The translations under genes and the position numbers were made by a program. Shown one piece after another: positions 3,484-62,019 of a DNA stretch of 64,000 nucleotides (position 1 is the first letter of the stretch; each line of letters begins with the position of its first letter). This DNA comes from Botryllus schlosseri. Its lineage: Eukaryota. The stretch covers positions 39,930,001 through 39,994,000 of the forward strand of contig CM119371.1 of assembly GCA_051294905.1 (NCBI GenBank), read 5' to 3'. The notes under the pieces are model-generated. The model saw only the letters and a list, made by a program, of their open reading frames with translations. It did not search any database and was not told the origin of the DNA.

Positions 3484-3588
3484 TTCCCAATCCAAATTTC
3501 CAGATAGCGACTGAATCCGACGATGTCCAAGAAATGAACGTAGTGCTGTGGCCGAGAAATTGTTGCCTATTAAATCTACATCTTTCAC
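3484..3588 (-). CDS. NLR LRR exon (105 nt, phase 0-0), missed by the ORF track
   Basis: Acceptor atcgtttcag and donor gtgagt. Translates VKDVDLIGNNFSATALRSFLGHRRIQSLSGNLDWE, an LRR unit (xxVxLxxNxF), in phase with the 13049 donor. Confidence 0.75.
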
Positions 3589-13048: not shown

Positions 13049-13362
13049 GTGAATTCGATCCTTGATGCACCTTGCGATGATGCCCAACAGCTCAACGTCG
13101 ATACTGCAGTTGTATAAATTCAAATAACGAAGGCCTTGACTCCTTGCTGCAAGCGATCCAACGACATGAGCTTCATCGCGACTCAACGAGATGTAAGATG
13201 CATCGATGACGTCAAGACCTTTCATGAGATCATCGTCGTCTGATTCATAGGCCGCTGTATAAAGTTCCATGCGAATGCGATTGCGGCCTTCGTCCTCATT
13301 CTTCTCGAGTTGAAGGCGAAGCGATCGAGCCAAGACATGTTTCTTCTCCTTTCCATCCGAGA
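13049..13362 (-). CDS. NLR exon: end of helical domain plus first LRRs (314 nt, phase 1-0)
   Basis: Encodes ...MELYTAAYES...LRYLNLYNCSIDVELLGII (LxxLxLxxC-type LRR). Acceptor gcgtcacag and donor gtgagt. Joins the NACHT exon in frame (LYK|V-SDGKEK). Confidence 0.85.
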
Positions 13363-37255: not shown

Positions 37256-38650
37256 CTTTGTAAAGATCGTTTTGTGATTTGGAGAAGACGACGCCTGCCA
37301 CGAATCGTCGCACAACGGACCATCGTTCTTCATGGAGATGTTCTTCATCGAAGCGAGAGAACTCGTTGAGATTCATTTCTGCTATGAAAATCGCTGCCAG
37401 ATATTCTTGAAGGCTTTGATGACAGAAAAACAATGTGAAATTTCCTTCCATCAAATGTCGGCTTAGTAAGTTGTTCCCCGGGACTTTAGTCATCAAATCT
37501 TGGACTTCATCTGCCGAAATTCCAAATTCCTTCAAGTCCGCCTCTTTAAACACGACCCGTCCTTCTCTCATGCCTCGAAATGCCAATGACTTCAGTTTGT
37601 TGACGATCGATAAGATTTGTTCCCGATTTCGAATGTTTTCGACGCTTTGTAGGGATGATATGATCCTGGTGTATAATTCTGTCACCGTTGTTGGAGGAGG
37701 TTTATCTGGATCCCTGCCCATCACAACTGCCGTTAGAACCAGAAAAACGGGCACAGAGATTAAATTGAGCAATCTTGGTGACATAGTCTCAATTTTCTGC
37801 CAGAGCTCCTCACCATTCTCTTTGAGTAAAAATGCAAATAGCCTATGCGCGTCATCATACGTAAGGCCATTCAGCGTGATGATGGTTTCCGGTCGCGCCA
37901 TCGCCGGTAACTCTGAAACCTTGAACTCGCGCGAAGCTATGTAGACATTTACGCGACGTAGGATATTCCGGGATAAAATGTTGTACATGATTGTCCCGCA
38001 GCTTGCTTTTTCGTGCTTTTTCATTTTGCGTGGAGTTTTCTCAAAATCCCACCTTGCTTGATCAAGTCCGTCGAATATTAGGAGTGCATCGGATTGATGT
38101 TTATCCAGCCATTTAAATGCATGATCCTCTTCAAATTCATTTTCGAAGAGCCCTCCAAATAAAAATTTAGATGGTTTAATATCGCCCTTCACTTCGACGT
38201 CCTTCAACTCAATATAATGGACCATTGTTTTACCGTTAGAGTACAGATCTTCAACATGCTCAATGTTGGTGGATGCGCCAAGAGCTCGTCGAGCTATTCT
38301 GCGTGTAAGCGTGGATTTTCCCGATCCAGCAGATGCCACAATAGCGGTTATACCAACAATTCCTGATAAGCCTGATTTTTTCTTTTGCCACATGGATGCC
38401 ACTACGTCCACGATCCCGATATCTTTCGCTCTAAGTGTGTCCTTACGCAGAAATCCAACTTCCTGTGTCAGCTGATTATGGCCATAGCGACCTTTGTAAT
38501 AATCATCAACGTCAACTTGACGCATCTGCGGGTAAACTTGAAAGTCAGGTTGCTGAAGCTTTTCATGTCGGAAGTCATCAAGGATATCAATGGCCGTAAC
38601 ATTTATGGTATTTTCGTTGCAAATTTGTAACAACTTTTCGTTACTGATAT
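37256..38650 (-). CDS. NLR-type receptor, NACHT-domain exon (1395 nt, phase 1-1)
   Basis: 465-codon open frame with Walker A (ASAGSGKST), Walker B (LLIFDGLDQ), sensor-1-like IASR, VPVFL and winged-helix FFCHQSLQEYLAA motifs. Acceptor ttttatttccag before 38650, donor gtcaga after 37256. Confidence 0.93.
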
Positions 38651-38804
38651 CTGGAAATAAAATATGGAAATTATAGGTATGAAAGATAAAGAAAACTTGA
38701 AATCTTCATATAGATACAGTTTGTCGAGCTATCGTTCTCACACGGAAATTTGACTGCAGATGAACGCAAGTAGTAGTATAGATCGCTCGCGATTCGCCAT
38801 TGTG

Positions 38805-39092
38805 GCTTATGGGTGCGGTCGCATGCGGCTGGGAAACTCGTGGTGGCATGCGGCTCTTATTTCTTATGGGTGCGGTCGCATGCGGCTATTGCGTCTTATG
38901 GGTGCGGTGGCAAGCGGCTCTTATTTCTTATGGCGGGGGTCGCAAGCGGCTGGGAAATCCGGGGTGGCATGCGGTTCTTTTGTCTTATGGCGGTGGTGGC
39001 ATGCGGCTCTTTTGTCTTATGGCGGGGGCGGCATGCGGCTCTTTTGTCTTATGGCGGTGGTGGCAAGCGGCTATTGCGTCTTATGGGTGCGG
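38805..39092 (+). repeat. GC-rich subterminal minisatellite of the Polinton-like TIR (mirror copy about 50376-50631, 32 bp shorter)
   Basis: Recurrent cttatggcggtggtggcatgcggct-type units of about 32 bp; boundaries approximate. Confidence 0.8.
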
Positions 39093-42000
39093 CCGTGAAT
39101 CGCCCTTTCGGGTATAGTCAACTCTTGCGCTGTGTTGAAGAAGTATCAGGAATAGTAAATAGTCACGTGATTGATTCTTAGTTAATGTGTATATTACAAA
39201 TTATTAAATATGACCGATTCGAGTTAATCCCAGCGTTTACGGTAAGTACGACAATGATATAACGTTATTCTTATGGCGGTGGTGGCATGCGGCTATTGTA
39301 TCGTGTTCTAACTCAAGTCTTTTCGCGCTGTGCCTATTGATTCCTACGTAACCTGAATAGCACGCCGACTTTCAGATCGGGTTATTCGCACCTTGTATAC
39401 CGCTGTTTCGCACCTACAGAATAGTCTGCTGTTCACAGTCGTGACTTCACCGCGATAGCGCGATTTTCGAATCAGTCGCATGGTAATGTTTTGCTATTTA
39501 GTTTACCACAGAGCGGTGTAGACGACGATTCGAATACCAACAATAACCGCGTTCACATACTAACACTCCAAAAAGGTGTGAAATATTTCCTACGACCACT
39601 CACAAGATAGCACATCAGAATAGTCATCTCTCGTGGTTTGATGTTACAAAGATAGGAATCACGCACAAGTAATATTTTGGTAATAAGTTTGTCACATAAC
39701 CGGCGTAGACGCTGATACCAACAATAGCCGCGTTCACAAACTAACACTTCAAAAAGGTGTGAATTAGGTTGCAAACCCCGCGATCGCTGACAAGATATTG
39801 TCTCGGACATAACCATCTTTCGCGACTTGCTGTTACATACATCCCAATCACTCACAAGATACTATTTTGGTACTTAGTTTGTCACAGAACCGGATTTCAC
39901 TGGTAAAATTTAATAAGTAACGAATAACAGAGCCGGCGTAGACGGTGATTCGAATACCGACAAATTTTCACTTATTTCTGCCCCAACCTCTGTGAAGTTG
40001 ACGCTTATTCAAAAAAGGTGTGAAATAATTGTAAAATCCTACGTCGGTGACGCGATAATGCATGAGACATAGCGATCTAGTTATAGTACGGTGTCGGAAT
40101 CCAATCGCGAGATGTTCTATAGGTAAATTGAGATAATCCGAAACGAAATATTTTGACTTTGGCGTAGTGTGAATTGAAATAGGATTGACAAACATGACTA
40201 TCAACTTTCCCACAGTCCCATATTGATATTATACGCACATTGATTTGAAACAAGTAATGGAACATTGCAACTCTATTCGCGATCCGACTTTTCGTTTGTC
40301 AAAGCGACATTTTAACATCTTACCATACTCAAAAGAATTATTTACAACATTAACAAGTGTTCAAAATCCAGTTTTCACTTACTTGATTATATCACTGCAA
40401 CTCACAAATTTGAATTAATTCATCCTGGATGTATTCGTATGATCGGTCTTTTTTATTCAATTGTAAAGGTCGTTACTATTCTGAAGACAAAGTAAGCTAT
40501 TTACTAATCGACACATGAATGACTTGACATAAACATATTATATTTTGAGTATACGAGATTTGAATGTCTGAACAATAACTGATAAATAATTTATCACAAT
40601 AAAATACGTATATTACAGCGTAAAAGATGTTTGAATGTCAGCAACTCTGTACGGTCATAGTCACTACCACTAATTTACCCGACCAACTCGTCATGATCAT
40701 TCCTGAAATCAACACAAATATGACCACTGACTTGAGTTAACCACAAAACAGCATCAAGTTTTAAATCCACTCGTAGCTTACGGATTATTTGAATGCTGGT
40801 TATGTTTTGTTGTAATTGAGCTAACGAAATAGTATTACGTCTCGACATCTTACCATCTTACCATATTCAAAGAATCAACCACGAAAACATTGTCAAGTAA
40901 ATCCGTTAACCGACCAACTCAAACAGTATCAATACGAAAAACAACCAAACATACACGAATCCATACAATCACTAAAACCTAAAATCCATAACAAACCCGG
41001 TTGTATTCATATCCCAACGCATCTTTTTTATTCACTTGAATATTAAATTATTTGCGTTAATTAGATCTGCATTGTGGTAAATGTTATGACTGCAACAAAC
41101 TTTTCAGAAACATTGTTATTAACATATTGATTTGTAAAACTATGCGTGTCTGAAATGTTTTTGATTTGAAAGATATTCCGTGTTTGTACAAATCACTTTA
41201 CGTATTACGGATATCAGAAAATATTTTTACAAATGTAGTTGTTTCCAGTAACCAACACTAAAGATGGCACAACAATTTCGTTATCCAAACATTGAACACC
41301 CGATGCAAAATGCTTTATTGGTCAAATTCGTGACGGCTAATTGAAACGACTACGTATAGAGTCAGTATATTACAATTTCATGTCGTTACTATTGAATCCA
41401 GCAATTGATACAATTTGTTGTCGGAGTTGTGACAGCGCATTGAAACATACACAACTTACAGAGTGTGAAAATATCACTTTGGGTATCGAGTACCGTTTGA
41501 AGCGTGCGATCAATACATAATTCCGTTCGCACTCTCTAAGACGTTGTGAAGTCTACAGATTTACACTTCAAGACTTTGATCAACACATATGCAATTTGGA
41601 ATATCTTTACTGGATGCATCCTATTCGACTAGACTTGAGTAATACACAAAACTCATAGCATTAACAAAATCGCAATAGGCGCTACACTGAAATCTACGAA
41701 ATGTTTTTCTATTGTTGTTAGTGATCATAAATTATCATTTGAATAAGTAATTGTAATCATAAAACCAAACTTGCGAAAGTCATTACCATAACAAAAGAAT
41801 ATTGTAGGTTGCTTGCTAAATGTATGCCGGAAATATTTGTAGAACGCTCACGACCAAAGAAATTGGAAATTTTCCCATTGTCATTCGTCAAAGTAAATGT
41901 CGTCACAATAATCAGTCACTAAAATACCTTACTTGTATGTGATTGAATCGCCGACAATTAACTCGGTAAATCAAACCCCTGAGAAATTTCACTCAGTCAT

Positions 42001-43789
42001 TGGATAGGAAACAGCGGCACTTAATCGGTGTGAGTCGTTTTTTCTAAATACTAATCATATCTGTCCACCCAAGAACAATTTTCACTCACTTGGGTAACGA
42101 AACCAGTGTCCAATATCAATACAAGATATTTTCGTCACACAAAAATAATCAACTTTACTCGATATTCCCGTACTACGAAACTGTACAATGGTTTCATATT
42201 TTTTGTGTGACATGGAATTAATACCGATCGAAGTAACCGTATTGGAAATAACTTTTAAACAAACACACTCTACGTGGTTAACATTCTCGTCGATTCTATT
42301 GTGATTAATGTATACTTCATGTGATCTGGATTCATTTCGATATGGCTAAACATTCAACCTCGACGGATACGAATTGTCACACACTCAAGTAATATCATAC
42401 CAAATAGTTATTTACAAGACACAGAAAATTTGTTTGGGTCGTTTCGATTTTATTACTGGAGATACTCATCACTTCGCTTAATACAATCTAGATTTAAACT
42501 CCATCGAACCTTTGGTGTCTATCGTTTGCTGGATACGAATTATGTTAGTCTAAGAGTACACAATTTTCACTATCTTGGGTTATGAACTCAGTGTGTTAGC
42601 GATCATTCAATATTTTGTAGTATCAACTAGCTACCTCGTAGGATACGAATGATCATCCTCACAACTCTTACAAAAGTACGAAGGATATTTACATCACACA
42701 AAGTAATCGACTTTACTCGATATCCTCACACTACGAAACTGAATGATTGGTTTGACTCTACAAACTGTTCTGATGTCACAAGAACTTTTTCATACGAATG
42801 GTTACGTATCTAAATATTCAAATAATCCAACACACGACTATAGTACTTACAGAAATATCATAGTTCTTGTAACAAAGTTGTATAAGTATAATGTTTATCG
42901 TAAGTCCTACATAGCCATGATATCCGTCCGAGTTTGACTTTTAGAAAACATTATACCGACTTCGCGACATCTTTCAAAATTAAAACCATGGTGACTGCTT
43001 CAGAGACCTACCAATGATATTGTAGTAATACAGTTACTTCCACAAAAGAGTATGTATTCGACTTACTTACCACAAATCTAACGCACAAAACAATTTACTT
43101 TACTAGCGAGAAGCGCCGAGCCTCACATCCAAACAACTAGAAAGTTGAACTATATTAAAAAACGTCGCTAACCTTTGTGCACCAGCTGTAAATCACACAA
43201 GCAACATGTTTCAAGATTCTGGTTATTGAAAAACGTTAAAGTGTTTCTCCTGCACCAAGTCGTTATGTTGACGAAAGCGTATATTGTAATACCATGATCG
43301 ATTTTCATTCGTTGGTCACAAACTGTCACTACTCTAAATAATTATTTTTCACTCAAACACAAAAGCATACTTGTCACCAATCGTTTTCATCAAGCACGAG
43401 TTCAAGAAGCTTACTTACTACGACATGAATTGTTATTTTTATGTTGTGTAAATAGGTAATAATTTATTTTAGTAACACTACATCAACATCATCGAGTTGT
43501 GCGAATAGATTTACATGTGGTTTTAATCGAAGTACACAGCACGAACTAACTGTAGACTCCTCTCTGTTGTACAGCTACTCGGTAATCGAAATGCATTAAC
43601 ATGTAAACAACGATCTTGTTTCGTCACACCAAAAATATGTTCACTGTCGCGATACTCCGCACAAGACGTGCATAGCCTTTTCACACTCGTAATAGTACAC
43701 CAACGTCAAGCGATAACGTTTAACAAGACCAACGACACTGAAGCCAAGCCGTTTACCTATGTAAAATTACCACTTTCACTTGCCAGTCC

Positions 43790-44240
43790 ATCGTTTACCT
43801 GACTAAACATATTATTTTTCTTTGGAGATCTGACGTTTACCCAGAGTAAGAAACCATTTTCACTTGTAAATATTTTTTTCCTCGGCTAACAAACCTTTTT
43901 TTCACTTGGAAATATATTTTTTCTCTGGTTAACAAACCTTTTTTCACTTGGAAATATATTTTTTCTCTGGTTAGCAAACCTTTTTCCCTGAGCAACACGC
44001 CATTTTGACTTGGTGGTCGTCGTTTACCCGAGTAAAAATATCATTTTCTTTTGGAGATCCGGCGTTTACCCAGTGTAACAATACATTTTCACTTGGAAAA
44101 ACACTTTTGCCTAGAGTAACTAATCATTTCTCCTGGGTAACAAACCCTTTTCGTCTGGAAAACTATCATTTGCCTGAGTACCAATACAGTTTTCACTTGG
44201 AAATCTATCTTTCACCTGGGTAACAATACCATTTTCGTTT
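43790..44240 (+). repeat. Degenerate ~40-bp tandem repeat inside the left arm (mirror about 46685-47135)
   Basis: Repeated ttttcacttggaaa...gtaacaaacc motifs; boundaries approximate. Confidence 0.7.
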
Positions 44241-45811
44241 TGAAAACTGACAACCACACCGGTCAATTTGATATTTTTGTATATTGTTACAACGGACAGT
44301 GACAAAAATACACCAACAACGACTCCGATACATTTGTGTAATCGCATATTCACTTGTTCTGGTGCATCCCGTCAAAACCCTCAGTTACCCACATGTAATG
44401 CGCTATACATCGATGTGAATGTTTTGGAAAATTGGACAATAGGCTTCGATAGTTCTGTGATGTCCGGATTCGTGCTTTGGATTTTCCAGAGTCAAAATGT
44501 CTGAATAAAACACCTCCTTGACGATGGTTGGTATGTGGATAACGGTGTTCGGAAAACGGTTGGATTTATGTCACCCATCGCGATAACAACTCCAGGTCGA
44601 ATTTTCCTCCCGCATGTTTACTATATTGTGTCTTTATTGGTCAATGTATGTCTCGACATTCAGTTTGAAATCGGAAACCCTGATAAAGTATGTAACCGGA
44701 TCCGGATATCAACTGTGAATCGATAAACCAATGGACAATATTCAAAGTAAACATGTTACACCCTGTGTTTCCACGAAAAAATACCATCCAGACATACGTC
44801 GCGCTTGTTTTCCCACACCAGTATACGCGCAAATGGAGGTGTGTGACATTGCATGCAATGTGTTGGTATACAAACATCGATCCACAGACATTATCATAGC
44901 CGGTGGTTTTGATGTAGATCGAATGTCACCCGATAACAATACCAATAAGCCACATTGCAATGACTCTGAGTCAATCTGAAGCATGACATACAGACACACA
45001 AACATGGAACCGTAACATGGGTATTCACACGACGGTGAAAGTGAACTGTACAACATATATCAATATTGTGATCACAGTCGAATATGCGAACCATGCACAA
45101 TCATATACCTTAGTTTTTGTTGGATATGTACGAAACCGATAAATCGATACATTTCTTTTCCTTCGATGTCAATAATACAACCGTCATTCTAATGTATCGC
45201 TCGAATGTAATGTTCGTCGGGTGTAAATGCCATGTCAAATAACACCAAAGTGTGCCTTCTGTGTTTTATTATTTCCACTGACGCTTCTTGCCTGTGTCGT
45301 AACACTATGGTGCTGGGACTTGAAAAACGGCAGATTGTGAAACAGATTGACATGACCAACTGAATCGACGTCAATAGCCTTGTGACGATGGCGTTTCAAA
45401 ATGATACCGATCTCTTGTGGCGATGACCGTTTCGAAATGTCGCCGGACGAACTGGACCCTTATGATGATGTGTTTTATGATTGCGTGTGAAATCACGAGG
45501 TAGTGTTCTATTGTGGTGTACGATTGCAGATTCCACAGAAACACACCTTATTGGATCACAGTATCAGTCCGAGATTTTCAGAATCACTGTTCACGATATT
45601 TATCTGGAGTCGTTATGTGGGAGTAGCGACATCCCGTGATTTAGTGAAAGACTGATCGCAATCATTTCGAGCACCGTACTTCGATAGTTCGCATTGGTCA
45701 AACTTCGGTGTCGACAACACGCTGGATATTGACCGATCTGGGTGGTCTGTCTGGAGATAGGGTCATGACTATCTTGTAATGTTACAACGCGATAAAACCA
45801 TCGAATAAATC

Positions 45812-45969
45812 AGTGAACGGTGTCGAAATATCGATGTAATAGCGCGGACTCAGAGTCATTGCATAGTGAACGGTGTCGAAATATCGATGTAATAGCGCGG
45901 ACTCAGAGTCATTGCATAGTGAACGGTGTCGAAATATCGATGTAATAGCGCGGACTCAGAGTCATTGCA
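45812..45969 (+). repeat. Three tandem copies of a 53-bp unit straddling the spacer/right-arm junction
   Basis: agtgaacggtgtcgaaatatcgatgtaatagcgcggactcagagtcattgca(t) starts at 45812, 45865 and 45918. Confidence 0.92.
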
Positions 45970-48900
45970 ATGTGGCTTATTGGTATTGTTATCGGGTGAC
46001 ATTCGATCTACATCAAAACCACCGGCTATGATAATGTCTGTGGATCGATGTTTGTATACCAACACATTGCATGCAATGTCACACACCTCCATTTGCGCGT
46101 ATACTGGTGTGGGAAAACAAGCGCGACGTATGTCTGGATGGTATTTTTTCGTGGAAACACAGGGTGTAACATGTTTACTTTGAATATTGTCCATTGGTTT
46201 ATCGATTCACAGTTGATATCCGGATCCGGTTACATACTTTATCAGGGTTTCCGATTTCAAACTGAATGTCGAGACATACATTGACCAATAAAGACACAAT
46301 ATAGTAAACATGCGGGAGGAAAATTCGACCTGGAGTTGTTATCGCGATGGGTGACATAAATCCAACCGTTTTCCGAACACCGTTATCCACATACCAACCA
46401 TCGTCAAGGAGGTGTTTTATTCAGACATTTTGACTCTGGAAAATCCAAAGCACGAATCCGGACATCACAGAACTATCGAAGCCTATTGTCCAATTTTCCA
46501 AAACATTCACATCGATGTATAGCGCATTACATGTGGGTAACTGAGGGTTTTGACGGGATGCACCAGAACAAGTGAATATGCGATTACACAAATGTATCGG
46601 AGTCGTTGTTGGTGTATTTTTGTCACTGTCCGTTGTAACAATATACAAAAATATCAAATTGACCGGTGTGGTTGTCAGTTTTCAAAACGAAAATGGTATT
46701 GTTACCCAGGTGAAAGATAGATTTCCAAGTGAAAACTGTATTGGTACTCAGGCAAATGATAGTTTTCCAGACGAAAAGGGTTTGTTACCCAGGAGAAATG
46801 ATTAGTTACTCTAGGCAAAAGTGTTTTTCCAAGTGAAAATGTATTGTTACACTGGGTAAACGCCGGATCTCCAAAAGAAAATGATATTTTTACTCGGGTA
46901 AACGACGACCACCAAGTCAAAATGGCGTGTTGCTCAGGGAAAAAGGTTTGCTAACCAGAGAAAAAATATATTTCCAAGTGAAAAAAGGTTTGTTAACCAG
47001 AGAAAAAATATATTTCCAAGTGAAAAAAAGGTTTGTTAGCCGAGGAAAAAAATATTTACAAGTGAAAATGGTTTCTTACTCTGGGTAAACGTCAGATCTC
47101 CAAAGAAAAATAATATGTTTAGTCAGGTAAACGATGGACTGGCAAGTGAAAGTGGTAATTTTACATAGGTAAACGGCTTGGCTTCAGTGTCGTTGGTCTT
47201 GTTAAACGTTATCGCTTGACGTTGGTGTACTATTACGAGTGTGAAAAGGCTATGCACGTCTTGTGCGGAGTATCGCGACAGTGAACATATTTTTGGTGTG
47301 ACGAAACAAGATCGTTGTTTACATGTTAATGCATTTCGATTACCGAGTAGCTGTACAACAGAGAGGAGTCTACAGTTAGTTCGTGCTGTGTACTTCGATT
47401 AAAACCACATGTAAATCTATTCGCACAACTCGATGATGTTGATGTAGTGTTACTAAAATAAATTATTACCTATTTACACAACATAAAAATAACAATTCAT
47501 GTCGTAGTAAGTAAGCTTCTTGAACTCGTGCTTGATGAAAACGATTGGTGACAAGTATGCTTTTGTGTTTGAGTGAAAAATAATTATTTAGAGTAGTGAC
47601 AGTTTGTGACCAACGAATGAAAATCGATCATGGTATTACAATATACGCTTTCGTCAACATAACGACTTGGTGCAGGAGAAACACTTTAACGTTTTTCAAT
47701 AACCAGAATCTTGAAACATGTTGCTTGTGTGATTTACAGCTGGTGCACAAAGGTTAGCGACGTTTTTTAATATAGTTCAACTTTCTAGTTGTTTGGATGT
47801 GAGGCTCGGCGCTTCTCGCTAGTAAAGTAAATTGTTTTGTGCGTTAGATTTGTGGTAAGTAAGTCGAATACATACTCTTTTGTGGAAGTAACTGTATTAC
47901 TACAATATCATTGGTAGGTCTCTGAAGCAGTCACCATGGTTTTAATTTTGAAAGATGTCGCGAAGTCGGTATAATGTTTTCTAAAAGTCAAACTCGGACG
48001 GATATCATGGCTATGTAGGACTTACGATAAACATTATACTTATACAACTTTGTTACAAGAACTATGATATTTCTGTAAGTACTATAGTCGTGTGTTGGAT
48101 TATTTGAATATTTAGATACGTAACCATTCGTATGAAAAAGTTCTTGTGACATCAGAACAGTTTGTAGAGTCAAACCAATCATTCAGTTTCGTAGTGTGAG
48201 GATATCGAGTAAAGTCGATTACTTTGTGTGATGTAAATATCCTTCGTACTTTTGTAAGAGTTGTGAGGATGATCATTCGTATCCTACGAGGTAGCTAGTT
48301 GATACTACAAAATATTGAATGATCGCTAACACACTGAGTTCATAACCCAAGATAGTGAAAATTGTGTACTCTTAGACTAACATAATTCGTATCCAGCAAA
48401 CGATAGACACCAAAGGTTCGATGGAGTTTAAATCTAGATTGTATTAAGCGAAGTGATGAGTATCTCCAGTAATAAAATCGAAACGACCCAAACAAATTTT
48501 CTGTGTCTTGTAAATAACTATTTGGTATGATATTACTTGAGTGTGTGACAATTCGTATCCGTCGAGGTTGAATGTTTAGCCATATCGAAATGAATCCAGA
48601 TCACATGAAGTATACATTAATCACAATAGAATCGACGAGAATGTTAACCACGTAGAGTGTGTTTGTTTAAAAGTTATTTCCAATACGGTTACTTCGATCG
48701 GTATTAATTCCATGTCACACAAAAAATATGAAACCATTGTACAGTTTCGTAGTACGGGAATATCGAGTAAAGTTGATTATTTTTGTGTGACGAAAATATC
48801 TTGTATTGATATTGGACACTGGTTTCGTTACCCAAGTGAGTGAAAATTGTTCTTGGGTGGACAGATATGATTAGTATTTAGAAAAAACGACTCACACCGA

Positions 48901-49146
48901 TTAAGTGCCGCTGTTTCCTATCCAATGACTGAGTGAAATTTCTCAGGGGTTTGATTTACCGAGTTAATTGTCGGCGATTCAATCACATACAAGTAAGGTA
49001 TTTTAGTGACTGATTATTGTGACGACATTTACTTTGACGAATGACAATGGGAAAATTTCCAATTTCTTTGGTCGTGAGCGTTCTACAAATATTTCCGGCA
49101 TACATTTAGCAAGCAACCTACAATATTCTTTTGTTATGGTAATGAC

Positions 49147-49246
49147 NNNNNNNNNNNNNNNNNNNNNNNNNNNNNNNNNNNNNNNNNNNNNNNNNNNNNN
49201 NNNNNNNNNNNNNNNNNNNNNNNNNNNNNNNNNNNNNNNNNNNNNN
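49147..49246. other. Assembly gap (100 N) in the right arm
   Basis: Run of N. The flanks mirror left-arm positions 41779 and 40221, so about 1.56 kb is missing if the arms are symmetric. Confidence 0.97.
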
Positions 49247-51244
49247 ATGGGACTGTGGGAAAGTTGATAGTCATGTTTGTCAATCCTATTTCAATTCACA
49301 CTACGCCAAAGTCAAAATATTTCGTTTCGGATTATCTCAATTTACCTATAGAACATCTCGCGATTGGATTCCGACACCGTACTATAACTAGATCGCTATG
49401 TCTCATGCATTATCGCGTCACCGACGTAGGATTTTACAATTATTTCACACCTTTTTTGAATAAGCGTCAACTTCACAGAGGTTGGGGCAGAAATAAGTGA
49501 AAATTTGTCGGTATTCGAATCACCGTCTACGCCGGCTCTGTTATTCGTTACTTATTAAATTTTACCAGTGAAATCCGGTTCTGTGACAAACTAAGTACCA
49601 AAATAGTATCTTGTGAGTGATTGGGATGTATGTAACAGCAAGTCGCGAAAGATGGTTATGTCCGAGACAATATCTTGTCAGCGATCGCGGGGTTTGCAAC
49701 CTAATTCACACCTTTTTGAAGTGTTAGTTTGTGAACGCGGCTATTGTTGGTATCAGCGTCTACGCCGGTTATGTGACAAACTTATTACCAAAATATTACT
49801 TGTGCGTGATTCCTATCTTTGTAACATCAAACCACGAGAGATGACTATTCTGATGTGCTATCTTGTGAGTGGTCGTAGGAAATATTTCACACCTTTTTGG
49901 AGTGTTAGTATGTGAACGCGGTTATTGTTGGTATTCGAATCGTCGTCTACACCGCTCTGTGGTAAACTAAATAGCAAAACATTACCATGCGACTGATTCG
50001 AAAATCGCGCTATCGCGGTGAAGTCACGACTGTGAACAGCAGACTATTCTGTAGGTGCGAAACAGCGGTATACAAGGTGCGAATAACCCGATCTGAAAGT
50101 CGGCGTGCTATTCAGGTTACGTAGGAATCAATAGGCACAGCGCGAAAAGACTTGAGTTAGAACACGATACAATAGCCGCATGCCACCACCGCCATAAGAA
50201 TAACGTTATATCATTGTCGTACTTACCGTAAACGCTGGGATTAACTCGAATCGGTCATATTTAATAATTTGTAATATACACATTAACTAAGAATCAATCA
50301 CGTGACTATTTACTATTCCTGATACTTCTTCAACACAGCGCAAGAGTTGACTATACCCGAAAGGGCGATTCACGGCCGCACCCATAAGACGCAATAGCCG
50401 CTTGCCACCACCGCCATAAGACAAAAGAGCCGCATGCCACCACCGCCATAAGACAAAAGAACCGCATGCCACCCCGGATTTCCCAGCCGCTTGCGACCCC
50501 CGCCATAAGAAATAAGAGCCGCTTGCCACCGCACCCATAAGACGCAATAGCCGCATGCGACCGCACCCATAAGAAATAAGAGCCGCATGCCACCACGAGT
50601 TTCCCAGCCGCATGCGACCGCACCCATAAGCCACAATGGCGAATCGCGAGCGATCTATACTACTACTAACGCATGCGATAAGACTTTGTTTGGTGAGGAT
50701 TGCCTATAATTGAAAGCTAATATTCCCAGAAATGATGGTGAATTGTCGCGCAAGGAAACCAATTATTGTGGCAATCACCCATATTTTTCTCTGCAAACGA
50801 GAATACAAGGTTGGGCTAATTATTGTCGTATTCAGATAAGTAGTAGTCGTGATAAGTATTGTTAATCGATTTCGAAGATTACAGCATTTGAAAGTAATGG
50901 TAATCGCAATCGATTTTATTCAATAAATCATAATCGTGCTGATAGTAACCGATTATTTCACATATCTAATCGATTTCTTTGCGAGATAGCGTTCACTTTT
51001 ATTTGTAGAAGGACTATGACAGAACCTGAACATTCGTGAACAAGGAACAGTGCGGTATTATACCTCGTTGCTGATTGCAGAACCGTCGTATTTCCAGACG
51101 CCACTGGTCAGTCACGAGTATTACCTTTGCTTAAAACCGCGTAGCGAATCATCCACACAGTAAATATATATTCGATGTACTTTGTACTTGTACATTTGGG
51201 CTCTTCAAAAAATCACTTGTTCTCAAATCGTACTGGCTACTTGA

Positions 51245-51666
51245 TAGGCTTACCATACGTCCTCTTTTAAGAGGATTTGTCCTCTTTTTTGACTTTTTTG
51301 AAAGTGTCCTCGGAGGACGCCCTTTTGACCTCTTTTTTGAGATTTTGTCCTCTTTTTTGAAAATTTAGGTCTGTTATGCTGCAAATTAGCACTGAAGTGA
51401 CGGTCCGGCGGATATTTCGGAGTAAAAAACGATGAATTTACCTCTGAGCGAAAAGATGACCTTTTTTTTAGTCATTCACCTGGTAATGTAGATAAAAAAA
51501 AACGGTATTTTGAGATCTGAGCGGAAGTGATGACCTTTTTTTTTTAGTCAGCCGATCACAAAGTGGGAAAAATTCACCGATTTTTGAGAATTCTACTCCG
51601 GTTTTGCATCATGTAAATTTCTGAAAAAGTGTCCTCTTTTTGCATTTTCAAAATATGGTAAGCCTA
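51245..51666. mobile_element. hAT MITE
   Basis: TIR TAGGCTTACCATA; TSD CTACTTGA; interrupts a 6050-family MITE fragment. Confidence 0.9.
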
Positions 51667-53252
51667 CTACTTGATAAATTTGACAAAGGTAAAATTATTC
51701 TCGTATATTATTATGCTACGGTTTTAGGGTATTCAGGTGTCGCTAAACCGAGAAATGGCATAAATTTTTTTCCGAATAGACTTTATTTTTTGAAATATTC
51801 CGTATTTTTGTTTCTAATAGTGCTAATTATACGCAAATTCCCTTTATGTACTACAACTTCGATGAGTCTACATCTGACTTTTCAAGTCTGTACATCAAGA
51901 AGTATGCTGATGCGATATCTATAAAGACGCAATTGTTAACACAGATAGCCTTCTATAGCGAATCCTCTTTCATGTGAGAATCAAGCAAAAGTTTTAAAAA
52001 TAAGGTGATATTAGCATGACAACAGATTTTTGCAATGTAAAACAGGTGACGTCAAGGAATAGATATTAATTTTAGTAAGGCTCAACGCTCACTTTCACAA
52101 ATTATTTAATGAAACCAAGTTTTATGTGCAGCGGTGGAATGATGACCCCGGCAACAAAAGTTCCAATCATGATGTTAGCTTCACCTACTGCCATGGAATC
52201 TCTAGTTGGCCACTCTTTCTTTACCCAGTGATCAGTGCACGCTCAGCTATCCCACAAGCAGATAAAACATAGCTATTTTGATAGGTGTCCAATTGGGAGA
52301 GATGTATATTTCAGTTCAAACTGTTTTTCAAACTGTCCATGAATAAGCGCCACTCTTGAGGTCTAAATTGTGGCACTCCCATTTTCAGCAGAAGCCCTTC
52401 GAGGCCGGGGCAGTCAGTGTTCATTTTGTTAGCTAAAATTAGAAAGTAATTATTTTTCTCTTGTAAGGCAGAATGTTATTCAAGCTCCGGTTCCAAGGCA
52501 GTTTTTGTCTTTGAGTCGAGTAAACTTCTTCAAAGTGAGGCGCAGATCACCGAGCAGGTTAAAAATCTGCATAATTCCAAGTATTATGCTTACGACGAGT
52601 AAATTAAAAAAAATTAAATAGGAGTATCGAAATCTTGAGCCAATTCAAAGAAACGGATGTCGTTTTCGGACTCAGCAGACCAAACATACCCAGAAACCAA
52701 TAAAATATTTCTCGCACTGATAAAGATTATTTGTAGTTGTCCAGTGTTATCGTTAACATAACACAAAAATCATCTGGGTTAACGATTCCATTCCGATTCC
52801 ACACCGAAACCATCAGGGTTATGTCATTGAAAGCCGTCGGAATGGAATTAGGGTTACGGTAAGGATTTGGGTTAATGGTTACATTAAGGGTTAGTTTGGG
52901 GTTATATGAAGTCCCATGCCGCAACTCCCCGTGCTAAGGTTTCTATTACTAAACATCTCGTTTTGTTTTTACGGCATGCATAAGTATCGGGCAACCGGTA
53001 CTTCAATGAATAGCATGTACATTATTCTAATTTCATCCAGCCTACGTATGGGTTTTCCCTGCGCATAATTATTGTATCAACAATAACATGCTATCGTGCT
53101 AATACCCAAAACAGTGATTAAATTATCATGAATAGCAGATCTTAAAATATTTTGAAACATATATTGCTCGTCATTGATAAAGTAGCCTACTTTGAAGGTC
53201 ACCATGCTCGTGAGTTGGGACATCGTATTAAAAGAAAAAACATTACACTCAC

Positions 53253-53387
53253 TCTGACTCGACGGACTTGTTTCTCTTTCAGCACTAGTGGTGTTGTGGA
53301 CATTGTTCAGATCCCCGGCCACGATGTTAATAGAGCAATTTTCGAACTTTTGATTGACATTTTCACCTTCAGCCAAAGCTGCAGATC
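53253..53387 (-). CDS. Probable N-terminal NLR exon with RHIM-like motif (135 nt, phase 1-1)
   Basis: Acceptor gtgtgtctcag and donor gtgagt. Encodes SAALAEGENVNQKFENCSINIVAGDLNNVHNTTSAERETSPSSQ. Phase 1 matches the NACHT exon acceptor; the linkage is inferred. Confidence 0.6.
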
Positions 53388-54168
53388 CTGAGACACACGT
53401 TATTAAAATAATTTTATTGGTAATTGCCACTATTTAATATGGGTAATATTATCCGAGTTAACTGCGCTCCAATACATCAGGCATCAATTGCCGCTTGTTC
53501 CCCGTGGTAATAATGTAGACATAACATCAGCGACACCAGAATTGTGATCTCGGACCTCTTCTGCCATGCTATTGATCACGTGGTACTAATTAGATAGGGT
53601 ATACCAAAATACTGAAAATACTTAAAATTTCATTCAACGGTGCATCTTTTCTGAGCAACAGGGCGAGACTATCAGTCCTCAGCACATAGCTATGGTAGAT
53701 CTGATAGATATGTTCGAGCAATATGACCTGGCAACAGTCACATGTCCACAAATAAGTAATACCCTATATCAGTGCTTTTCAACCTGTGTAACGGTTCGCA
53801 CTGGTGCGAATGAAAAAAATTTCAGTGCGAATGACGAAGGTGGTGCGAATAGTGCGAATGAAAATCCGGATCAAGTGCGAATGAAAATCGTGAATAATTG
53901 TTAATTTTTCCTGACATAGAATAATTCAAATAAACCTAAATGGTAAATTAAGGTCAGTGTAACTTTTGTAGTGGCGACGCAATTGTGAAAACTCGTTCTA
54001 CTGATGACGCACCACTTATCGTAGTTCTCAGAAGCCGTAGTGAATTAATATATTCGCACATTGACTATTACGTAACCAAAAGCCTGGTTTGTCAACTGGT
54101 GTTTGTTAGTTTGTTTTGGGGTATTCATGGTGTTTTTCGACTACTAAGGTCATTTACACCAGGCCGAT

Positions 54169-54364
54169 ATTCTTCTTATTTTCCGTAACTGCCGACTTAT
54201 AGCACAGCCCACCTCTAGGCTTTTGTAAGACACCACTGACGCGGATGAGGTGGCGGGGAGGAGCCTAGGTAAACCTCCAACACTTAGGCATCGGAATTCG
54301 GACTCGGACCCGCACCCATTGGTGTTGCAGCCGCGGATTATACCACTGCGCTATCTCGCCACCC
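54169..54364 (-). mobile_element. tRNA-derived SINE
   Basis: Minus strand begins GGGTGGCGAGATAGCGCAGTGG (A-box) ... GGTCCGAGTCC (B-box-like) and ends in an A-rich tail. The 3' part recurs at about 28340-28412. Confidence 0.65.
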
Positions 54365-54477
54365 TTGGAAGCTGGTGTAGTTCAGACATACAGTATATCA
54401 GCCCGTCAGAGCCTACGACAAATTGACTTTCTGCTTTTATTCGCTAAACAATAATCATATTTTCGTAATAACTGTTC

Positions 54478-54764
54478 ATATTGAAATGAACCCGAATATT
54501 TTCGTCTGACACTCGTCAGGGGTAATCGTCAGCAACTAGTAGAGAATTGGAAAGAACATTGTATATCAACAATCGTATCACAAAAATATGACGTCACCAG
54601 CATGAAATGTGATACGATTGTTGATATACAATGTTCTTTCCAATTCTCTACTAGTTGCTGACGATTACCCCTGACGAGTGTCAGCCGAAAATATTCGGGT
54701 TCATTTCAATATGACTATACTATTTAATTGTATATTGAAGTTCTGTACCTCCAAGAAGCTCTTC
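54478..54764. mobile_element. Short inverted Penelope insertion nested in a hAT element
   Basis: Two opposed 3' tails; TSD TAATAACTGTTC (54466-54477, 54765-54776). Confidence 0.88.
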
Positions 54765-56428
54765 TAATAACTGTTCGATTAGCGCGAGACGCGAGGATAG
54801 TTGTAAATACAATTATTACAGACTAACATTTGCAAGTTACTGTAACGCAAATGTTTACCCCTTCAAGGGTTGTTAAAGTATGGATAGCAAAGGGCATAAC
54901 TTTTGGTCGTCGTGATGTAAGAGATATCTGTTAATATGTATGTAATATTTGTTCAATTTATTGCAAAAAATCCTGCTATAATTTTTACATATCTTAGGTC
55001 ACTGTGTTGGGTACTGTAGCCAGTAACCGAGACACGCAGAAAATATAGCTTTATCATGAGAATTTATGATAAGATTTGTACGACTGGTTTCTGGGAAACT
55101 TGGTCGAAGACCGTTGGGACGAACTAGTGTAGGCCTGTAGGGGTGTGCAACGAGTGAGTTCAGGCCTATGAGACTCATTCATTTCGGGGTCAACCCCTTC
55201 TGCGTCGGGGCACATGAAGACGTAAAGTTTTGGCCAACAAGCCGCTGACAAAATACGGTGCCAAAAATATAAGCGGCGACAAAACCTTGTCTAAAAAATG
55301 ATCGATGCTGTATGACAGAACCTTTCTATATGGATATGCTCCCTTGTCGGCACGGAATAGTCCCGTGTCTGCAATCTGATTAGACACGCAGTGGAATTTA
55401 ATTTGCCGTAATTTGAAATCGCGTGCGTCAGGCCTGTTTTGTAGAGCTGTGTTGGATAGAATTGTGGTCTGCGCGTTCCGTATGTCATACCTGTCCGTAA
55501 AATCGTATCATTCAACTGTAATACTAAAATGAATTCATTTTCAAGAGTGAGGCTCCGGTCGCGGGATGCCACAAAAACTCAGATATTAGGGGTGGTCAAG
55601 AATCTGCTATTAAACTGCTATGAATTACATTTGTTACATTTGGCTAAAGAGCTGAGCACACATAGTATCGTGAGTTTCTTTGCTCTTCTCATATAGCCTA
55701 GTCGCGAGACAGAAGTTGGAGCAACGTATCACATAATAGCGAGCTCTAATGTGCCTATACTCTGCTTGATCGTTTTGTAACATATATTCCAAGAGATAAG
55801 GCGAAAGCCTCAACTCAAACATGTGGGTTTTCACCCTTCCGACAAATTTTTGCCTCCGGGACCTTTGTGTCAGCTCTCAAAAACGATTTCTGCCAACAAG
55901 CATTTCTCACTCGCGAAAAATACGCTGTATTTTGGATTGGAGTGCAGAACAGATTTTAAGACCTGGCCATCGAAGCACTAGAAGACGTTGTTGTACAAAA
56001 CCCAACAACTTGTTTGGCTGAGAAGGGTTTTGGTGAAATAGTTGAAATCAAAAAGAGCGAAAAAAGTTGCCTCTCTAATGAGACACTTGACAGCTTAGGC
56101 TCTAGAGAATAGCCAATTTGTTGCACATCTGAACAAAATGTTGTTAAGTGTCGTCATCTCCTTTTTGTATAACAATTTTCGGTTAGGTTGTGCGAATGAA
56201 ATTTATTTTACAAAAAAAGTGCGAATGGAGCTCGAAAAGGTTGAAAAGCACTGCCCTATATTATCAGGAAGCGATGTGTTGAATAATAAATGGTATGAAT
56301 TATACCTTGCGATCAGTTTGTAATTATACGTATCTTCAATTATTTTAAATTAGCTTCTAATTCAGCTGCCCACAAATCAAAACCTTATTAAATACTAGTA
56401 CTACAATTAATGGACCAATCCTATAAAG

Positions 56429-57103
56429 CAGGGGTGTCCAACCTTTTCAGCCAAAGGGCCACATTTGATTTACGAACTATTGCGCAGGCCACTAGCCGCG
56501 CAAAGCGCGAAAATTTTTCGAAGTTCACAGGTCAATATAACTGTCACTTGACTATATTGCGGGCCTGCTCTATATTGCTGGGCTCAGTTTGCAAGGAATG
56601 GACTATTCGGCGCCTGGACATATCAATATCGAAAGCTTCGACCAACATGCGTAAATCATTTTGAGCCTAGGTTTTATAGTCGACGGTCTTTCTGCGAGCG
56701 CAAACGCAAGGTCGCATACGTTGAACGACACTTTGTCTTGTAATCGCGAATATAGTTAGACTCAATCTGATACATTAGACATTCTTTCATTTTCCCAAAG
56801 GGATAACAATATTAAAAGCAAGAAATCGAGTGATAACATGTTGCGCGAAGCAAGCGTGTAGAAATTTTTTATTTTGATGAATCTATCGCAAATTATTCTG
56901 CTTTATTGTAGTGTACGGAGATCTACCAAAATGTGACTGGCTCATGGATCTGCCAATGCGTCGGATCTGATATTTTTTGGTCATCACATCTCAAGTTTTG
57001 CAGCCAGCCTAATGAAATTTTTGGTTCGCAATCTGTGCAATCCAATTTTGATAATATTACTAATTTGGAAATTACCTCGCGGACCATGGGTTGGCCGGCC
57101 CTG
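56429..57103. mobile_element. hAT MITE
   Basis: CAGGGGTGTCCAACC...GGTTGGCCGGCCCTG; TSD CTATAAAG. Confidence 0.88.
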
Positions 57104-57171
57104 CTATAAAGTCTGTCATCAAAAGATACGCTTGCGTTAGTGACCGAACGACATGGTTTGTTTGTTTACGT

Positions 57172-59635
57172 CAGAGGTCAACAATTATTTTCCTCCGCGG
57201 GCCGAATGAGAAGTAGAAAACACGTTGGCGGGCCGAATGAAAATATTGAGCTATGTTATCCAGCGTATTTTAATTTTATTTATATCTAAATTACATCGTT
57301 AATAAATGCTGCTCAGCGAATGTGTTGATGTTGGTTAATTGAAAAATATCTTTTTGCTGTAATCATTCGAAAAGTGTTGGACATAATGCATTTTCACCCC
57401 TCTTTAAACCCCTATCAACACACTAGAACAGTGGTTCTCAAACTGTTTACGCACGCCCCTTATATGATAGTGAAAAATTTCGCGCCCAACCTTCCCATCA
57501 TGATATCGCAACATAATAAAAACCAGAATGTCAGCAATCCCAACCGATAGTTTGCTAGCATGGAAGGTTATGGATGTTGATGGGGAAAATTCTGTAATAT
57601 CAAAGTCGGACAATACACAGAGAAATAACTACACTATAAGCCGGGGTTAACTCGCGCGGAGCGCGAAAGAAATTCACTTAACCGTTTGGCACCGGCGTGT
57701 CTATTTTTCGACATGCCGGTACGAGAGAAGAGTACCGTAATTGAAACCACGATATATTACACATTAATCGTGCTAGGTCGTTGTTTTTCATTTCTGTGAA
57801 TAGATATTGTTCGTACAAGTTCATTGATACCTTGTTATATGATATTTATTATGTCGAAGACGTCAAAATCGTATATCAAACACCATAGATAAATATGTTG
57901 CAAAATACACTGTGTCGGCAATTCGCGCGTCATTGACCACTCTCAGATAACGTTCTGTATGTTTCGTTCAAGCCGTCTTCGCGCATAGTTGTTTCATTAT
58001 GAGAATAGCTAGTGTCCATACAAGTCCACACGTATCTTCATATCTGATATTAGTTACATCTAAGCTGATCAAAAGCTATGTGATAGGCCGCGTGACAAAA
58101 ATATCCGCCGAAGCATCATTTCGCAGACACGCGCGTTCCTCATACGCGCCATATACACTGTCGTTTAGTTGGTTTTATTCGTCATAACCAGCTGTAGTTT
58201 GTTGCTATGAATAGCGATTGTCAGTTTCTGTTTATATTTTGCTAAAGCAACTATACTAGTTAGCTCTATACCGCTCAAGGTTTCATTTGAAAACCGGGAA
58301 GCGAATTCCGTCAGACTACCGTACCAGCTTCAAGCACATAACGTGAAATATATCGTGTTCTAATAGCCACAAACCTTCATAGATTGTGTCTGTGAATTGT
58401 TGCTGCACATATGATTCGAAATAACGGCTAATGGTAGAGAATAATTCGGAATGCATACAATATTACTCAGCGATTATACCTGCGCAAAAGCGTGCGTCTG
58501 GGTATACAAAGAGCTGTCGTACATCGATATACATCTTACGTTGTAGTAATGATAAGCATTTGCAGTAAATCAATATGGTAAGGACTGTAAATATCTGTCT
58601 ACGAATACTAAAATGACTAATATAGGGTCACAACAGTTTGAGTTATAAGCCTTACAAGTTACCATACGCGCGCGAATCATTCGCTATGACTCACTCTCTC
58701 GGAGGCCTGCCGCGAGCTGACTAAAACGGTCGGTATTGTTTTGATTAGAAATTAGCGCCTACTAGACGTAGACCGTCGACTCAGGGCTCTCTAGAACGAT
58801 GAATTCTGAGCCTATACAATACACCAGACTGTATGGTCGTCGAATACCTATACTAAGGTTCATAAGGTCCGCAATTTAGCATTTCTGCTTTCAAGCAACG
58901 TTTTCTCGGCTTGCTCTCGATATAAGTGGCCAGACACAGAGCTCGAAATGATTTGAGTGGCGCAATCGGATCCGCGTTGAAATTCTGAATCGAACGCTAC
59001 CTTGTTCATCGTGCTCCAATCCCATTAAGGCACAGTTTTTCTATTTTGAAAATTGAAGTAAAATTTTTCGAAAATTGCAGCCGTTGCCATTCGGTTAATT
59101 TCGGCTTTCCATTCAGATGCTCTCACGCCTCCCCACCAGTTCTTGAACCACTGCACTGAAATGTATATATGGGATAGTACAAAGCTGTCTTGGTCGCTGC
59201 ATTCCGAGAAGAGTGCCGCTCAAATAGCCTTGATGTTGAGCGAAGTTTGCAGTTTTACTGAAATTCACCCTCCTTGACCGAGTGCTTGGTGTTTTTGTCA
59301 CAATTAAAATCCTTAATCTCGGCGACATGCTCCGCAAAAACTAAAAGAACGGGTCTACCTCGAGCTCCAGCTAGTATAGCCTACAAATATTTAGTGCTCT
59401 AAACCTTTGAGCAGCATGCAAGGTGCGTATAGGCAGTGTAATCGCGCCATATTAATGAACAGGCTGCAAAGTAAACGAATTTCGTGTTTAGTTGATACAG
59501 CCTATGGTTTTAGTCCACGCATCAACATTCAAAAAGCAGGTTTAATCTGATGAATTCCAAGCAACCTTTCGCGGGTCGCACAGAATTGCTTCGCGGGCCG
59601 CATTTGGCCCGCGGGCCGGACTTTGCCCAGGTCTG
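57172..59635. mobile_element. hAT MITE (outer element of a nest)
   Basis: CAGA...TCTG ends, subterminal GCGGGCCG motifs, perfect TSD GTTTACGT. Confidence 0.82.
57429..59153 (+). mobile_element. Decayed hAT element nested in 57172-59635
   Basis: TIR CAGTGGTTC; near-TSD CACTAGAA/CACTGAAA. About 58890-59030 reads, with frameshifts, like a transposase C-terminus (ATFS...RHRARNDL...QSH*). Confidence 0.7.
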
Positions 59636-59904
59636 GTTTACGTTGATTGCTGAAGATTATACTTAGAAGTGGGCGGGTTGAGGGTGTTACACATAATCTA
59701 TGTCATAAGTTGAAAGTTTTCAGTGGAGAATATTCAGCGATTCGGAATCCGTAATATGCAACAGCGAAGTTACACCTGTGAATACGGTATGAAAACATCC
59801 CAAATCACATGGATACTAGGACAAGCATCATCCGGTTGTGCGGGCGGTGCGTAGACGGGGTTAAACCCGCTAGACGCCAACCCGCCACACGCCAAACGCC
59901 ACCC

Positions 59905-60046
59905 TGCGGCTGGGTCTTTACGTGGCGTCTGGCGTCTGAACGGGTTGAAACGCAGACTGGCGGCTGAATTGCCACATGGTGTCTGGCGTGTAAATGGGTT
60001 GAAACGCAGACTGGCGGATGAAGTGCTATATGGTGTCTGGCGTCCA
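59905..60046 (+). repeat. Degenerate ~56-bp tandem repeat (about 2.5 copies)
   Basis: tggygtctggcgt...gggttgaaacgcagactggcgg recurs. Confidence 0.65.
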
Positions 60047-60419
60047 ACATTTTAGGACGCCGTACTGCGACTGTTGGCGGTGCGGCAGCCTCTTGGTTTT
60101 CAGAAATGAAGAAACATTCATTAATAAAATCGGACCAACAACCACATTGGTAATGAGTTTCTATAGAATGACATCGGATGTTTCGCAGTATTTGAAATGC
60201 TCAGTTTATTTGCGCACATTTCTAATCCCCTAGCCTAGAATGTATTACGCGTTTCAGATAACAAACACTCACGCAATATCAACAGAAGTTGCATTTGTCA
60301 AGTAACACGTCTGATGTTTGACATTCGGGATTTGTATGCAGTGTAAGTAGTATAGTACCAGGATAATGACGTAATTCCGACTTGAGCTGATTGCTACTAA
60401 GTAGACCTAGCTGTGGGAC

Positions 60420-61035
60420 CATAGTGTCCTATATGGTGTCGACACAAGCAAATCTCACGGCTCAGTGAAATTGATTCACGTCACAATTTCCATTTGACTA
60501 CAGGCAATTTGACGATCATTTTTGACCGGCTTGCTGAGCATTAAATTTGGTGAAACGGGTATCAGTCGAAAGCTGACTCTGCACTGATTACGAAAACATA
60601 AATTTTATTCTGTCGCGGCCCTGGAACCCCCACAATCAGCCTCTAAATTTTCATTGTTATGGAGATTGGCATTGTGACGCAACAATGCTGTCTGACGAAA
60701 CGAGAGACACTACAATGCTGTCTGGCTCCCTTTTTCTTGAGCTACTATCTCGTTTCACCTGACAGCATTGTTGCGTCACACTGCCAATCTCCTCAACAAT
60801 GAATAATTTGGGGTTTGATTGTGGGGGTTCCAGGGCCATGAGCGGAATAAATTTTATATTTTCGCAAGCAGTACAGCGTCAGCTTTCGATTGATACCCGG
60901 TTCATCAAATTTAATGCTCGGCAAGCCGGTCAAAAATGACCGTCAAATTGCCTGTAGCCAAATGGAAATTGTGACGTGAACCAATTTCACTGAGCCGTGA
61001 GATTTGGTTGTGTCGACACCATATAGGACACTATG
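60420..61035. mobile_element. Hairpin MITE with P-element-like termini
   Basis: CATAGTGTCC...GGACACTATG; arms of about 270 bp; 7-bp TSD GTGGGAC. A half copy lies at about 18580-18865. Confidence 0.78.
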
Positions 61036-62019
61036 GTGGGACTGTGGGTGTGAGTACGTCCGGTACAATAGATTTTTTCCAAGGAAGTTGCAATAATTAG
61101 TGATTGCTTATACGCATTGAATGCAATCAAACATTCCTTGCCCTTTCTCACTTTAGTAGTCGATATAATTATTTTGTTGAACCATGAGGTACGAAAAGAC
61201 GAAGGCTCCATACTGTTCGTATGTGTACCGGATCAGCCTGCAACACGCGATATTGAATTTAAAGATCGTTCAGCAACCGCAGAAGCCTCTACCCTATATT
61301 AAAGTGGAAATCAAATCAGTTGGCGCGCCGACTTTTGATCGTGGTTGTACTGAATAGTGCATTTCACAACACCGTAATTACGAATCGAACTGTAGGCTAC
61401 ATATCAATCCACCTATACCGGTAACTGGTAGCGGGAACTTGGCGTGTAGATGGTTTTGCGTTCAAGATGACACATTGAAGACCGAATTTCGATAGAAGGC
61501 CGCAATTCAAAACCATGCCGTGCTAATGGAATCGTAAACTTGACCTGCAAAATCAGACCTTGTCATTGTGCGGTCCGCGGGACAAATGCGGCCTACAAGA
61601 CGATTTTGAGCGGTGTCACTGCATGTTTCCATATTCACGTTGTAACTTTGTTTGATGCCTGATCTATGGTTTAAAGCACCGTTTGAAAATGAAAAATAGT
61701 TCACGGCAGACTAGCATAGTGGTTCTCAAGATTTTCAGCTCAACAGTCCTGCAAACTACCAGGATACTTAGCAGGATCCATAGCAATGGTCCCTCTAATT
61801 GCTGACGAGCCTGTGCACACTGATCAACTCACTGCACAGACCATTGAACAACAGTGCGTAACGACTATAAAAGGCCATCACTTCGGATTTTTTGTGCGCA
61901 ACTTAGATTTTCTGCGCGCAGTGACCGTCTCAGCACTGCGCATTCGCACACGTGCGCAGCTTGGAGGGAACATTGATCCACAGTCGTACGGAGGTGATCT
62001 CTGACAAAATACTTTTCCA

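Follow-up and report, generated by a model that had tools for sequence, protein, structure and literature searches.

The RHIM of RIPK1, RIPK3, ZBP1 and TRIF is a short, non-globular motif that sits in the death-fold slot and is common to sensors and kinases. A RHIM-NACHT-repeat protein, BF82280, is described from Branchiostoma in the available text of PMC4262963, according to which tunicates appear to lack RHIMs; the available portion of PMC12119088 reports that no RIPK1 homologue was found in tunicates. The cRHIM of insects and crustaceans (VxxG) is placed by the available sections of PMC13506858 on PGRP, Imd, STING and SRB2 and not on NLRs. In fungi and bacteria, motifs such as HRAM/NWD2-HET-S, PP, sigma and BASS1-10 are N-terminal on NACHT-type receptors, with a matching motif C-terminal on separate effectors of the HeLo/Bell type (10.1101/2020.01.06.895854 and PMC7889193, in their available parts). 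Finally, zebrafish NLR-B30.2 genes carry N-terminal peptide-repeat exons of ~30 aa that are described as confined to those NLRs in the available main text of PMC4852459, in which the words amyloid and RHIM are absent.

Here we describe an exon-encoded motif of the tunicate Botryllus schlosseri, found upstream of a NACHT exon in a stretch of 64,000 nucleotides that we call the window. The tunicate nature of the host also shows in its 495-Mb genome, where a cellulose-synthase exon with a QRSRW motif is present. Like the RHIM, it is short, predicted to be non-globular, placed in the death-fold slot and common to sensors and kinases, and it has a RHIM-like look (hydrophobic-x-N ... G-D/N-x-x-N), but it forms a longer two-repeat unit and precedes the kinase where the RHIM follows it. 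The Branchiostoma protein offers a precedent for the motif-NACHT order, whereas its sequence and effectors, as far as the available text of PMC4262963 describes them, differ. With the fungal and bacterial motifs the tunicate motif shares the N-terminal place on NACHT-type receptors and the matching copies on separate putative effectors; unlike them, it is animal, exon-encoded and present in more than 150 copies, its candidate effectors are unlinked kinases and RNases, it stands ahead of the enzyme domains, and its pseudo-repeat measures 17 aa as against 21 in HRAM (10.1101/2020.01.06.895854 and PMC7889193, available parts). The zebrafish exons of PMC4852459 are likewise single-exon modules shuffled to positions ahead of NACHT, in a large family that has expanded; sequence comparison with exons of that type extended to 40 NACHT proteins, among which the motif profile found no match.

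A conserved exon ahead of the NACHT domain

The sequence-only reading had proposed a well-bounded phase 1-1 exon, and the boundaries were borne out: on the minus strand the exon lies between an acceptor gtctcag at 53388 and a donor gtgagt, and it encodes the peptide given in that reading. When its 44-aa translation was used as query against the whole B. schlosseri genome, 150 matches were obtained among 157 candidates, which makes the exon more than a chance reading, and two additional queries added 13 motif places. Across the 70 distinct motif copies in the fetched loci, scanned at phase-1 positions alone, a phase-1 AG is present in 67 and a phase-1 GT(A/G)AG donor in 49. Neither the window nor its 40-kb flanks contain another motif exon for this gene, and that possibility was rejected. 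The coordinates of the gene model and of the insertion within it are collected in the table below.

Features of the motif-NACHT gene and its intronic insertion (window positions)
Feature	Position	Strand	Details
First coding exon	53492..53611	minus	ATG at 53567, 25 low-complexity residues; from paralogue comparison
Motif exon	53253..53387	minus	phase 1-1, 135 nt; from direct sequence reading
Conserved core of motif exon	53305..53385	minus	residues ~1-27; variable linker after
Palindromic insertion	38769..50667	none	11.9 kb, in motif-NACHT intron; AGTAGT termini, 6-bp target duplication AACGCA
NACHT + winged-helix exon	37256..38650	minus	phase 1-1, 1395 nt, open; acceptor ttccag
Helical/LRR-like tail exon	13049..13362	minus	phase 1-0, conserved in paralogues
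LRR-like tail exon	3484..3588	minus	phase 0-0
Additional tail exon			~2.5 kb before window start

The next coding exon found after the motif exon is the NACHT/winged-helix exon (Pfam NACHT PF05729, E=4e-15; winged helix PF17779, E=9e-7), separated from it by a 14.6-kb intron, most of which is the single palindromic insertion. Of the earlier claim that the two exons are spliced in frame, the frame holds, while the junction is a prediction. The gene had also been called a NACHT-LRR receptor: the NACHT part stands, together with a winged helix, and the LRR part is faintly indicated, the best LRR match found being LRR_1 at E=0.16, in a model past which the 3' end of the gene lies, and a Pfam scan of two tail exons giving zero matches. 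Six hand-picked exons of the gene join into a 727-aa frame without a stop, which is open partly by construction since the exon models were chosen by eye.

In the start exon, an in-frame TAG lies six codons 5' of the ATG, and the donor is GC in the window copy and GT in most paralogues. Of the 38 loci that offered 1.4 kb or more of upstream sequence, 15 matched a start-exon pattern (which misses diverged copies), and 12 of these 15 have an in-frame stop within ten codons 5' of the ATG. Each of the 13 genome matches of the ATG exon has a motif match 100-420 nt downstream. Some 7 kb beyond the window the start exon is duplicated intact (L041, window-equivalent 70919-70844); the duplicate has a GT donor, lacks a motif exon of its own and may be the real start of the window gene.

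No death-fold exon had been recognised in the window by the sequence-only reading, and this extends to 40 kb upstream, where none of 75 sense-strand frames of at least 62 aa matches a CARD, DD, DED or PYD; an upstream death-fold exon supplying the effector domain was therefore rejected. The ATG exon with its upstream stop, taken with the lack of an upstream death fold, yields the predicted order short tail, motif, NACHT, helical/LRR-like tail. In these genomic models the motif stands at the N-terminus of an NLR without a folded effector domain, as is characteristic of NLR-associated amyloid motifs, and on the predicted gene structure it occupies the death-fold slot.

The motif core is under purifying selection

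The motif comprises ~27 residues rich in N, Q, V and G, with the consensus SATLAEGENVxQxFxNSxVNVVAGDQ, and the conserved unit, which starts at SAxLAEGENV, is longer than the peptide first noticed. The core is under purifying selection: its dN/dS is 0.31 (0.19-0.50) as against 0.77 for the exon tail in 19 close copies, and 0.20 as against 0.72 in 60 copies, values that are biased low because the copies were collected by protein similarity. The conservation among paralogous NLRs that the earlier reading had asked for is thus found, across 150 genome matches. On the same strand, at least 89 of the 150 motif copies are followed within 40 kb by a NACHT exon listed in the search; among the NACHT matches listed, three of the 150 copies have the NACHT upstream and one has it on the opposite strand, the reference set being 137 positions derived from the 150 listed of 194 matches by leaving out the final 13 rows.

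Within core columns 10-16, conserved and variable positions alternate. The core contains 21% N+Q, 25% V/I/T and 0.3% Pro, with two near-invariant glycines, and an internal pseudo-repeat (LAEGENVN / VVAGDQIN) recurs at an offset of 17, with a score that 54 of 2000 column shuffles equal or exceed. The alternation, composition and internal repeat would be compatible with stacked beta-arches. Read by eye, at least 13 pairs of motif copies lie on the same strand less than 15 kb apart. A tree of the motif built on 34 columns is mostly unresolved and places the kinase-linked copies at three positions.

The motif also precedes kinases, a KEN RNase and other domains

Forty-seven copies without a listed NACHT neighbour were fetched with their surroundings. 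Sixteen precede other NACHT clades (three confirmed by Pfam and the remainder assigned by likeness), six precede IRE1/RNase L-type kinase exons, four NHL exons and two TPR exons, and one precedes an SH2 domain followed by the start of a Src/Frk-like kinase; for the other 18 no downstream partner was assigned within the 10-20 kb of downstream DNA examined. The effectors with a matching motif for which the sequence-only reading had suggested a search thus have candidates in the kinases, the kinase-KEN gene and the SH2-kinase, all of them in-frame predicted models.

At the kinase-KEN locus (L075+L111, G000:C3:46-58 kb), a set of 13 exons, chosen by eye and bounded by AG/GT, gives a 771-aa open frame in the order motif, kinase, kinase, KEN RNase, and the motif exon is the first exon found. 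Pfam Ribonuc_2-5A is matched there at E values of 2e-8 and 3e-9, and the stretch R-N-x-x-H-H, catalytic in IRE1, is present. Like IRE1 and RNase L, the candidate has a kinase followed by KEN, whereas it differs from them in its two kinase domains and motif head; its closest named relatives are nematode kinases with PF06479. The two kinases at this locus could belong to two separate genes. A motif-kinase model of 308 aa has AG/GT ends and no stop. The model of motif, SH2 and kinase start (G000:C10:27.53 Mb; 280 aa, seven exons with AG/GT ends) is out of frame with the acceptor first chosen and in frame with an upstream acceptor. Both of these models, too, were chosen by eye. Kinase-linked motif copies are 35-45% identical to the window exon and keep the core; one motif-linked kinase carries a stop. 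The motif does not extend to the kinase family as a whole: when 16 stretches upstream of kinases were picked blind, one contained it. No effector of the HeLo, Bell or MLKL type occurs at the 29 loci with an assigned partner, and MLKL_N gave no match, a weak negative given that its control was silent too.

The kinase and RNase genes form a large expansion in this genome, with 75 matches for the single-exon IRE1/RNase L-type kinase, many of them on C3:16-22 Mb, and 28 for the KEN RNase domain. In the exons after one motif-linked kinase (L064:2494-5715, G000:C5:3.18 Mb), a weak PARP14-type KH match (E=8e-4) suggests a motif-kinase-KH protein. A Bcl-2 family exon (E=8e-21; L109:308-886, G000:C3:20.07 Mb) lies 17 kb downstream of another motif-linked kinase on the same strand. 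The motif exon precedes NHL-repeat exons at four tandem loci (L033, L063, L104 and L105, G000:C8:3.86-4.02 Mb), which probably represent a recent chimeric family; an NLR-type start exon is also present at L033 and L104.

Relation to RHIMs and to amyloid assembly

The exon had been described as RHIM-like, and scoring with the Pfam RHIM profile had been suggested. This identification failed. A genome search with PF12721 gave three weak matches among ten candidates, all of them below the cut-off and away from the motif loci, and none of 27 family members matched it. Neither the (V/I)Q(V/I/L)G tetrad, and with it the (V/I)Q(V/I)G form of the RHIM, nor the G-hydrophobic-Q-hydrophobic-G core that RHIMs have in common with PP and BASS3 occurs in any of 60 copies. 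We therefore rejected the motif as a RHIM. The pattern [VI]xxG[DN], corresponding to the loose VxxG of the cRHIM, occurs in 49 of the 60 copies; this comparison concerns a four-letter pattern that is too short to discriminate.

Pfam searches of the motif members likewise gave no match to the fungal and bacterial amyloid motif families, and EAD10 matched two of the 27 members (best E=0.0098). AlphaFold2 monomer models (pLDDT 68.6 and 64.4) have no secondary structure, and a fold search with the first of them found no matching fold. A complex prediction with two NLR and two kinase motifs, run without alignments, scored 0.02 and was uninformative; a sequence search of the PDB returned nothing meaningful, and the best score in the ESM Atlas was 0.79. 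We consider it highly probable that the motif is a conserved interaction module, while for amyloid-type assembly, argued from residue pattern and from analogy, we see even odds.

A possible route from sensor to effector and its alternatives

The conservation of the motif, the selection on it, its genomic position and its shared occurrence in different genes are direct observations. Since it stands ahead of NACHT, kinase, SH2-kinase, TPR and NHL genes, it can be read as a homotypic signalling module, and protein-level selection, the death-fold slot and recurrence before unrelated enzymes make a homotypic interaction motif the best reading, one that probably couples sensors to effectors. NLRs oligomerise through their NACHT domain upon ligand binding. 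In the window gene and its paralogues this would cluster the N-terminal motifs, which could then nucleate a stacked beta-arch assembly, probably cross-beta to judge from the sequence features. Such an assembly may recruit proteins with the same motif, namely the IRE1/RNase L-type kinases, among them the predicted two-kinase protein with its KEN RNase, the SH2/Src-like kinase and the TPR and NHL proteins, and recruitment would activate the motif-bearing enzymes. Kinase-KEN enzymes become active on oligomerising, so that the likely output would be phosphorylation and RNA cleavage and not caspase recruitment. Splicing, binding, amyloid state and direction of signalling are the steps that we infer in this scheme. 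To the explanation as a whole, a lineage-specific homotypic motif standing in for the death fold across a very large family of tunicate NLRs, we assign a probability of roughly 0.55. A bolder version, in which a shuffled exon constitutes a second, non-RHIM animal amyloid motif through which more than 100 tunicate NLRs template assembly of IRE1/RNase L-type kinase-RNases and of a Src-like kinase in a death-fold-free pathway ending in RNA cleavage, is put forward tentatively, as somewhat doubtful.

Conservation, selection and shared occurrence would be accounted for equally well by a non-amyloid element, whether a short linear motif or beta-hairpin through which sensors and kinases dock on one folded adaptor, or a sequence forming small discrete oligomers; the negative RHIM tests favour such an element, as does the N-terminal place of the motif in sensors and enzymes alike. 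We nevertheless hold it to be rather unlikely, because 27 conserved, N/Q-rich and proline-free residues with strict in/out alternation and an internal repeat go beyond what a linear motif typically shows, and because the same-strand pairs of neighbouring copies suit avidity or templating. The motif might instead act in cis, through autoinhibition, stability or membrane or organelle targeting, and link no different proteins; it is always near the N-terminus, and its presence on unrelated proteins would suit a portable targeting or degradation tag. However, an autoinhibitory contact could not be common to NACHT, kinase, SH2, TPR and NHL domains, and the motif has neither a hydrophobic helix nor a basic patch, which makes a cis role improbable.

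It is equally improbable, in our view, that the occurrences outside NLRs were carried along as 5' exons or promoters were shuffled out of an expanding NLR family, and that the window copy belongs to a decaying gene. The NHL loci that carry the NLR-type ATG exon together with the motif exon, the stop in one motif-linked kinase and, for the window copy, the GC donor, the 11.9-kb insertion and the lack of reads all point that way. Against it, the kinase-linked copies have diverged and yet retain the core, all six exons found for the window gene are open, and beyond the window the ATG exon is also present intact, with a GT donor. Under the favoured reading of a homotypic motif, the sister group of vertebrates supplies a defined 27-residue candidate whose partners are predicted and which peptides and reporter fusions could test cheaply; should it prove non-amyloid, it would still indicate how a very large death-fold-less NLR family may signal, with a link to a KEN RNase.

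Condition of the window copy and its insertion

RNA depth on the bin that holds most of the motif exon was 0.14, 0, 0 and 0 in three raw runs and one contig set. No RNA joint was seen at the motif exon with reads mapped on 50700-64000, a region that excludes the motif-NACHT junction. Because the reads used made up 6-13% of each raw run, with the signal coming mostly from repeats, and the tissues of origin are unstated, these data neither confirm the junction nor show silence. The window copy may be decaying, given its GC donor and insertion, but its predicted open reading frame argues against decay, and we lean slightly towards a functional copy.

The insertion is a near-perfect palindrome with arms 98-100% identical, contains an N gap (49147-49246) and has no frame longer than 140 aa. 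An assembly artefact was rejected because a target-site duplication is present. Its AGTAGT termini and 6-bp target duplication are marks of Polinton/Maverick-type elements, and it looks like a non-autonomous insertion of that type. Elsewhere in the window, a GIY-YIG frame of a Penelope-like element (31641-32423, E=9e-4) lies in the intron after the NACHT exon, and a 238-aa acidic open frame without a Pfam match (21597-22313) lies between identical 345-bp direct repeats (20797-21141 and 22284-22628).

Occurrence outside this genome

No prior description of the motif was found in the open-access literature, supplements, which may bear on novelty, lying outside that scope. Outside this genome, the motif profile matched 15 proteins, of which two are unrelated repeat proteins and the other 13 are short frames representing this type of exon; the nine short frames looked up are all unnamed singletons. 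A profile search for longer motif-bearing proteins elsewhere gave none that scored, a weak negative. As the matches elsewhere are just short unnamed frames, the motif looks lineage-restricted within those searches. Short, N/Q/I/V-rich, domain-less heads were also seen on a Clavelina NLR (P0033) and on an unnamed NACHT protein (P0001), and they are possible analogues; homology to the motif is not claimed, since 31 and 25 of 500 shuffles, respectively, score as well. Among unnamed ENA proteins (P0013-P0019 and similar), a connexin domain is fused N-terminally to NACHT-LRR.
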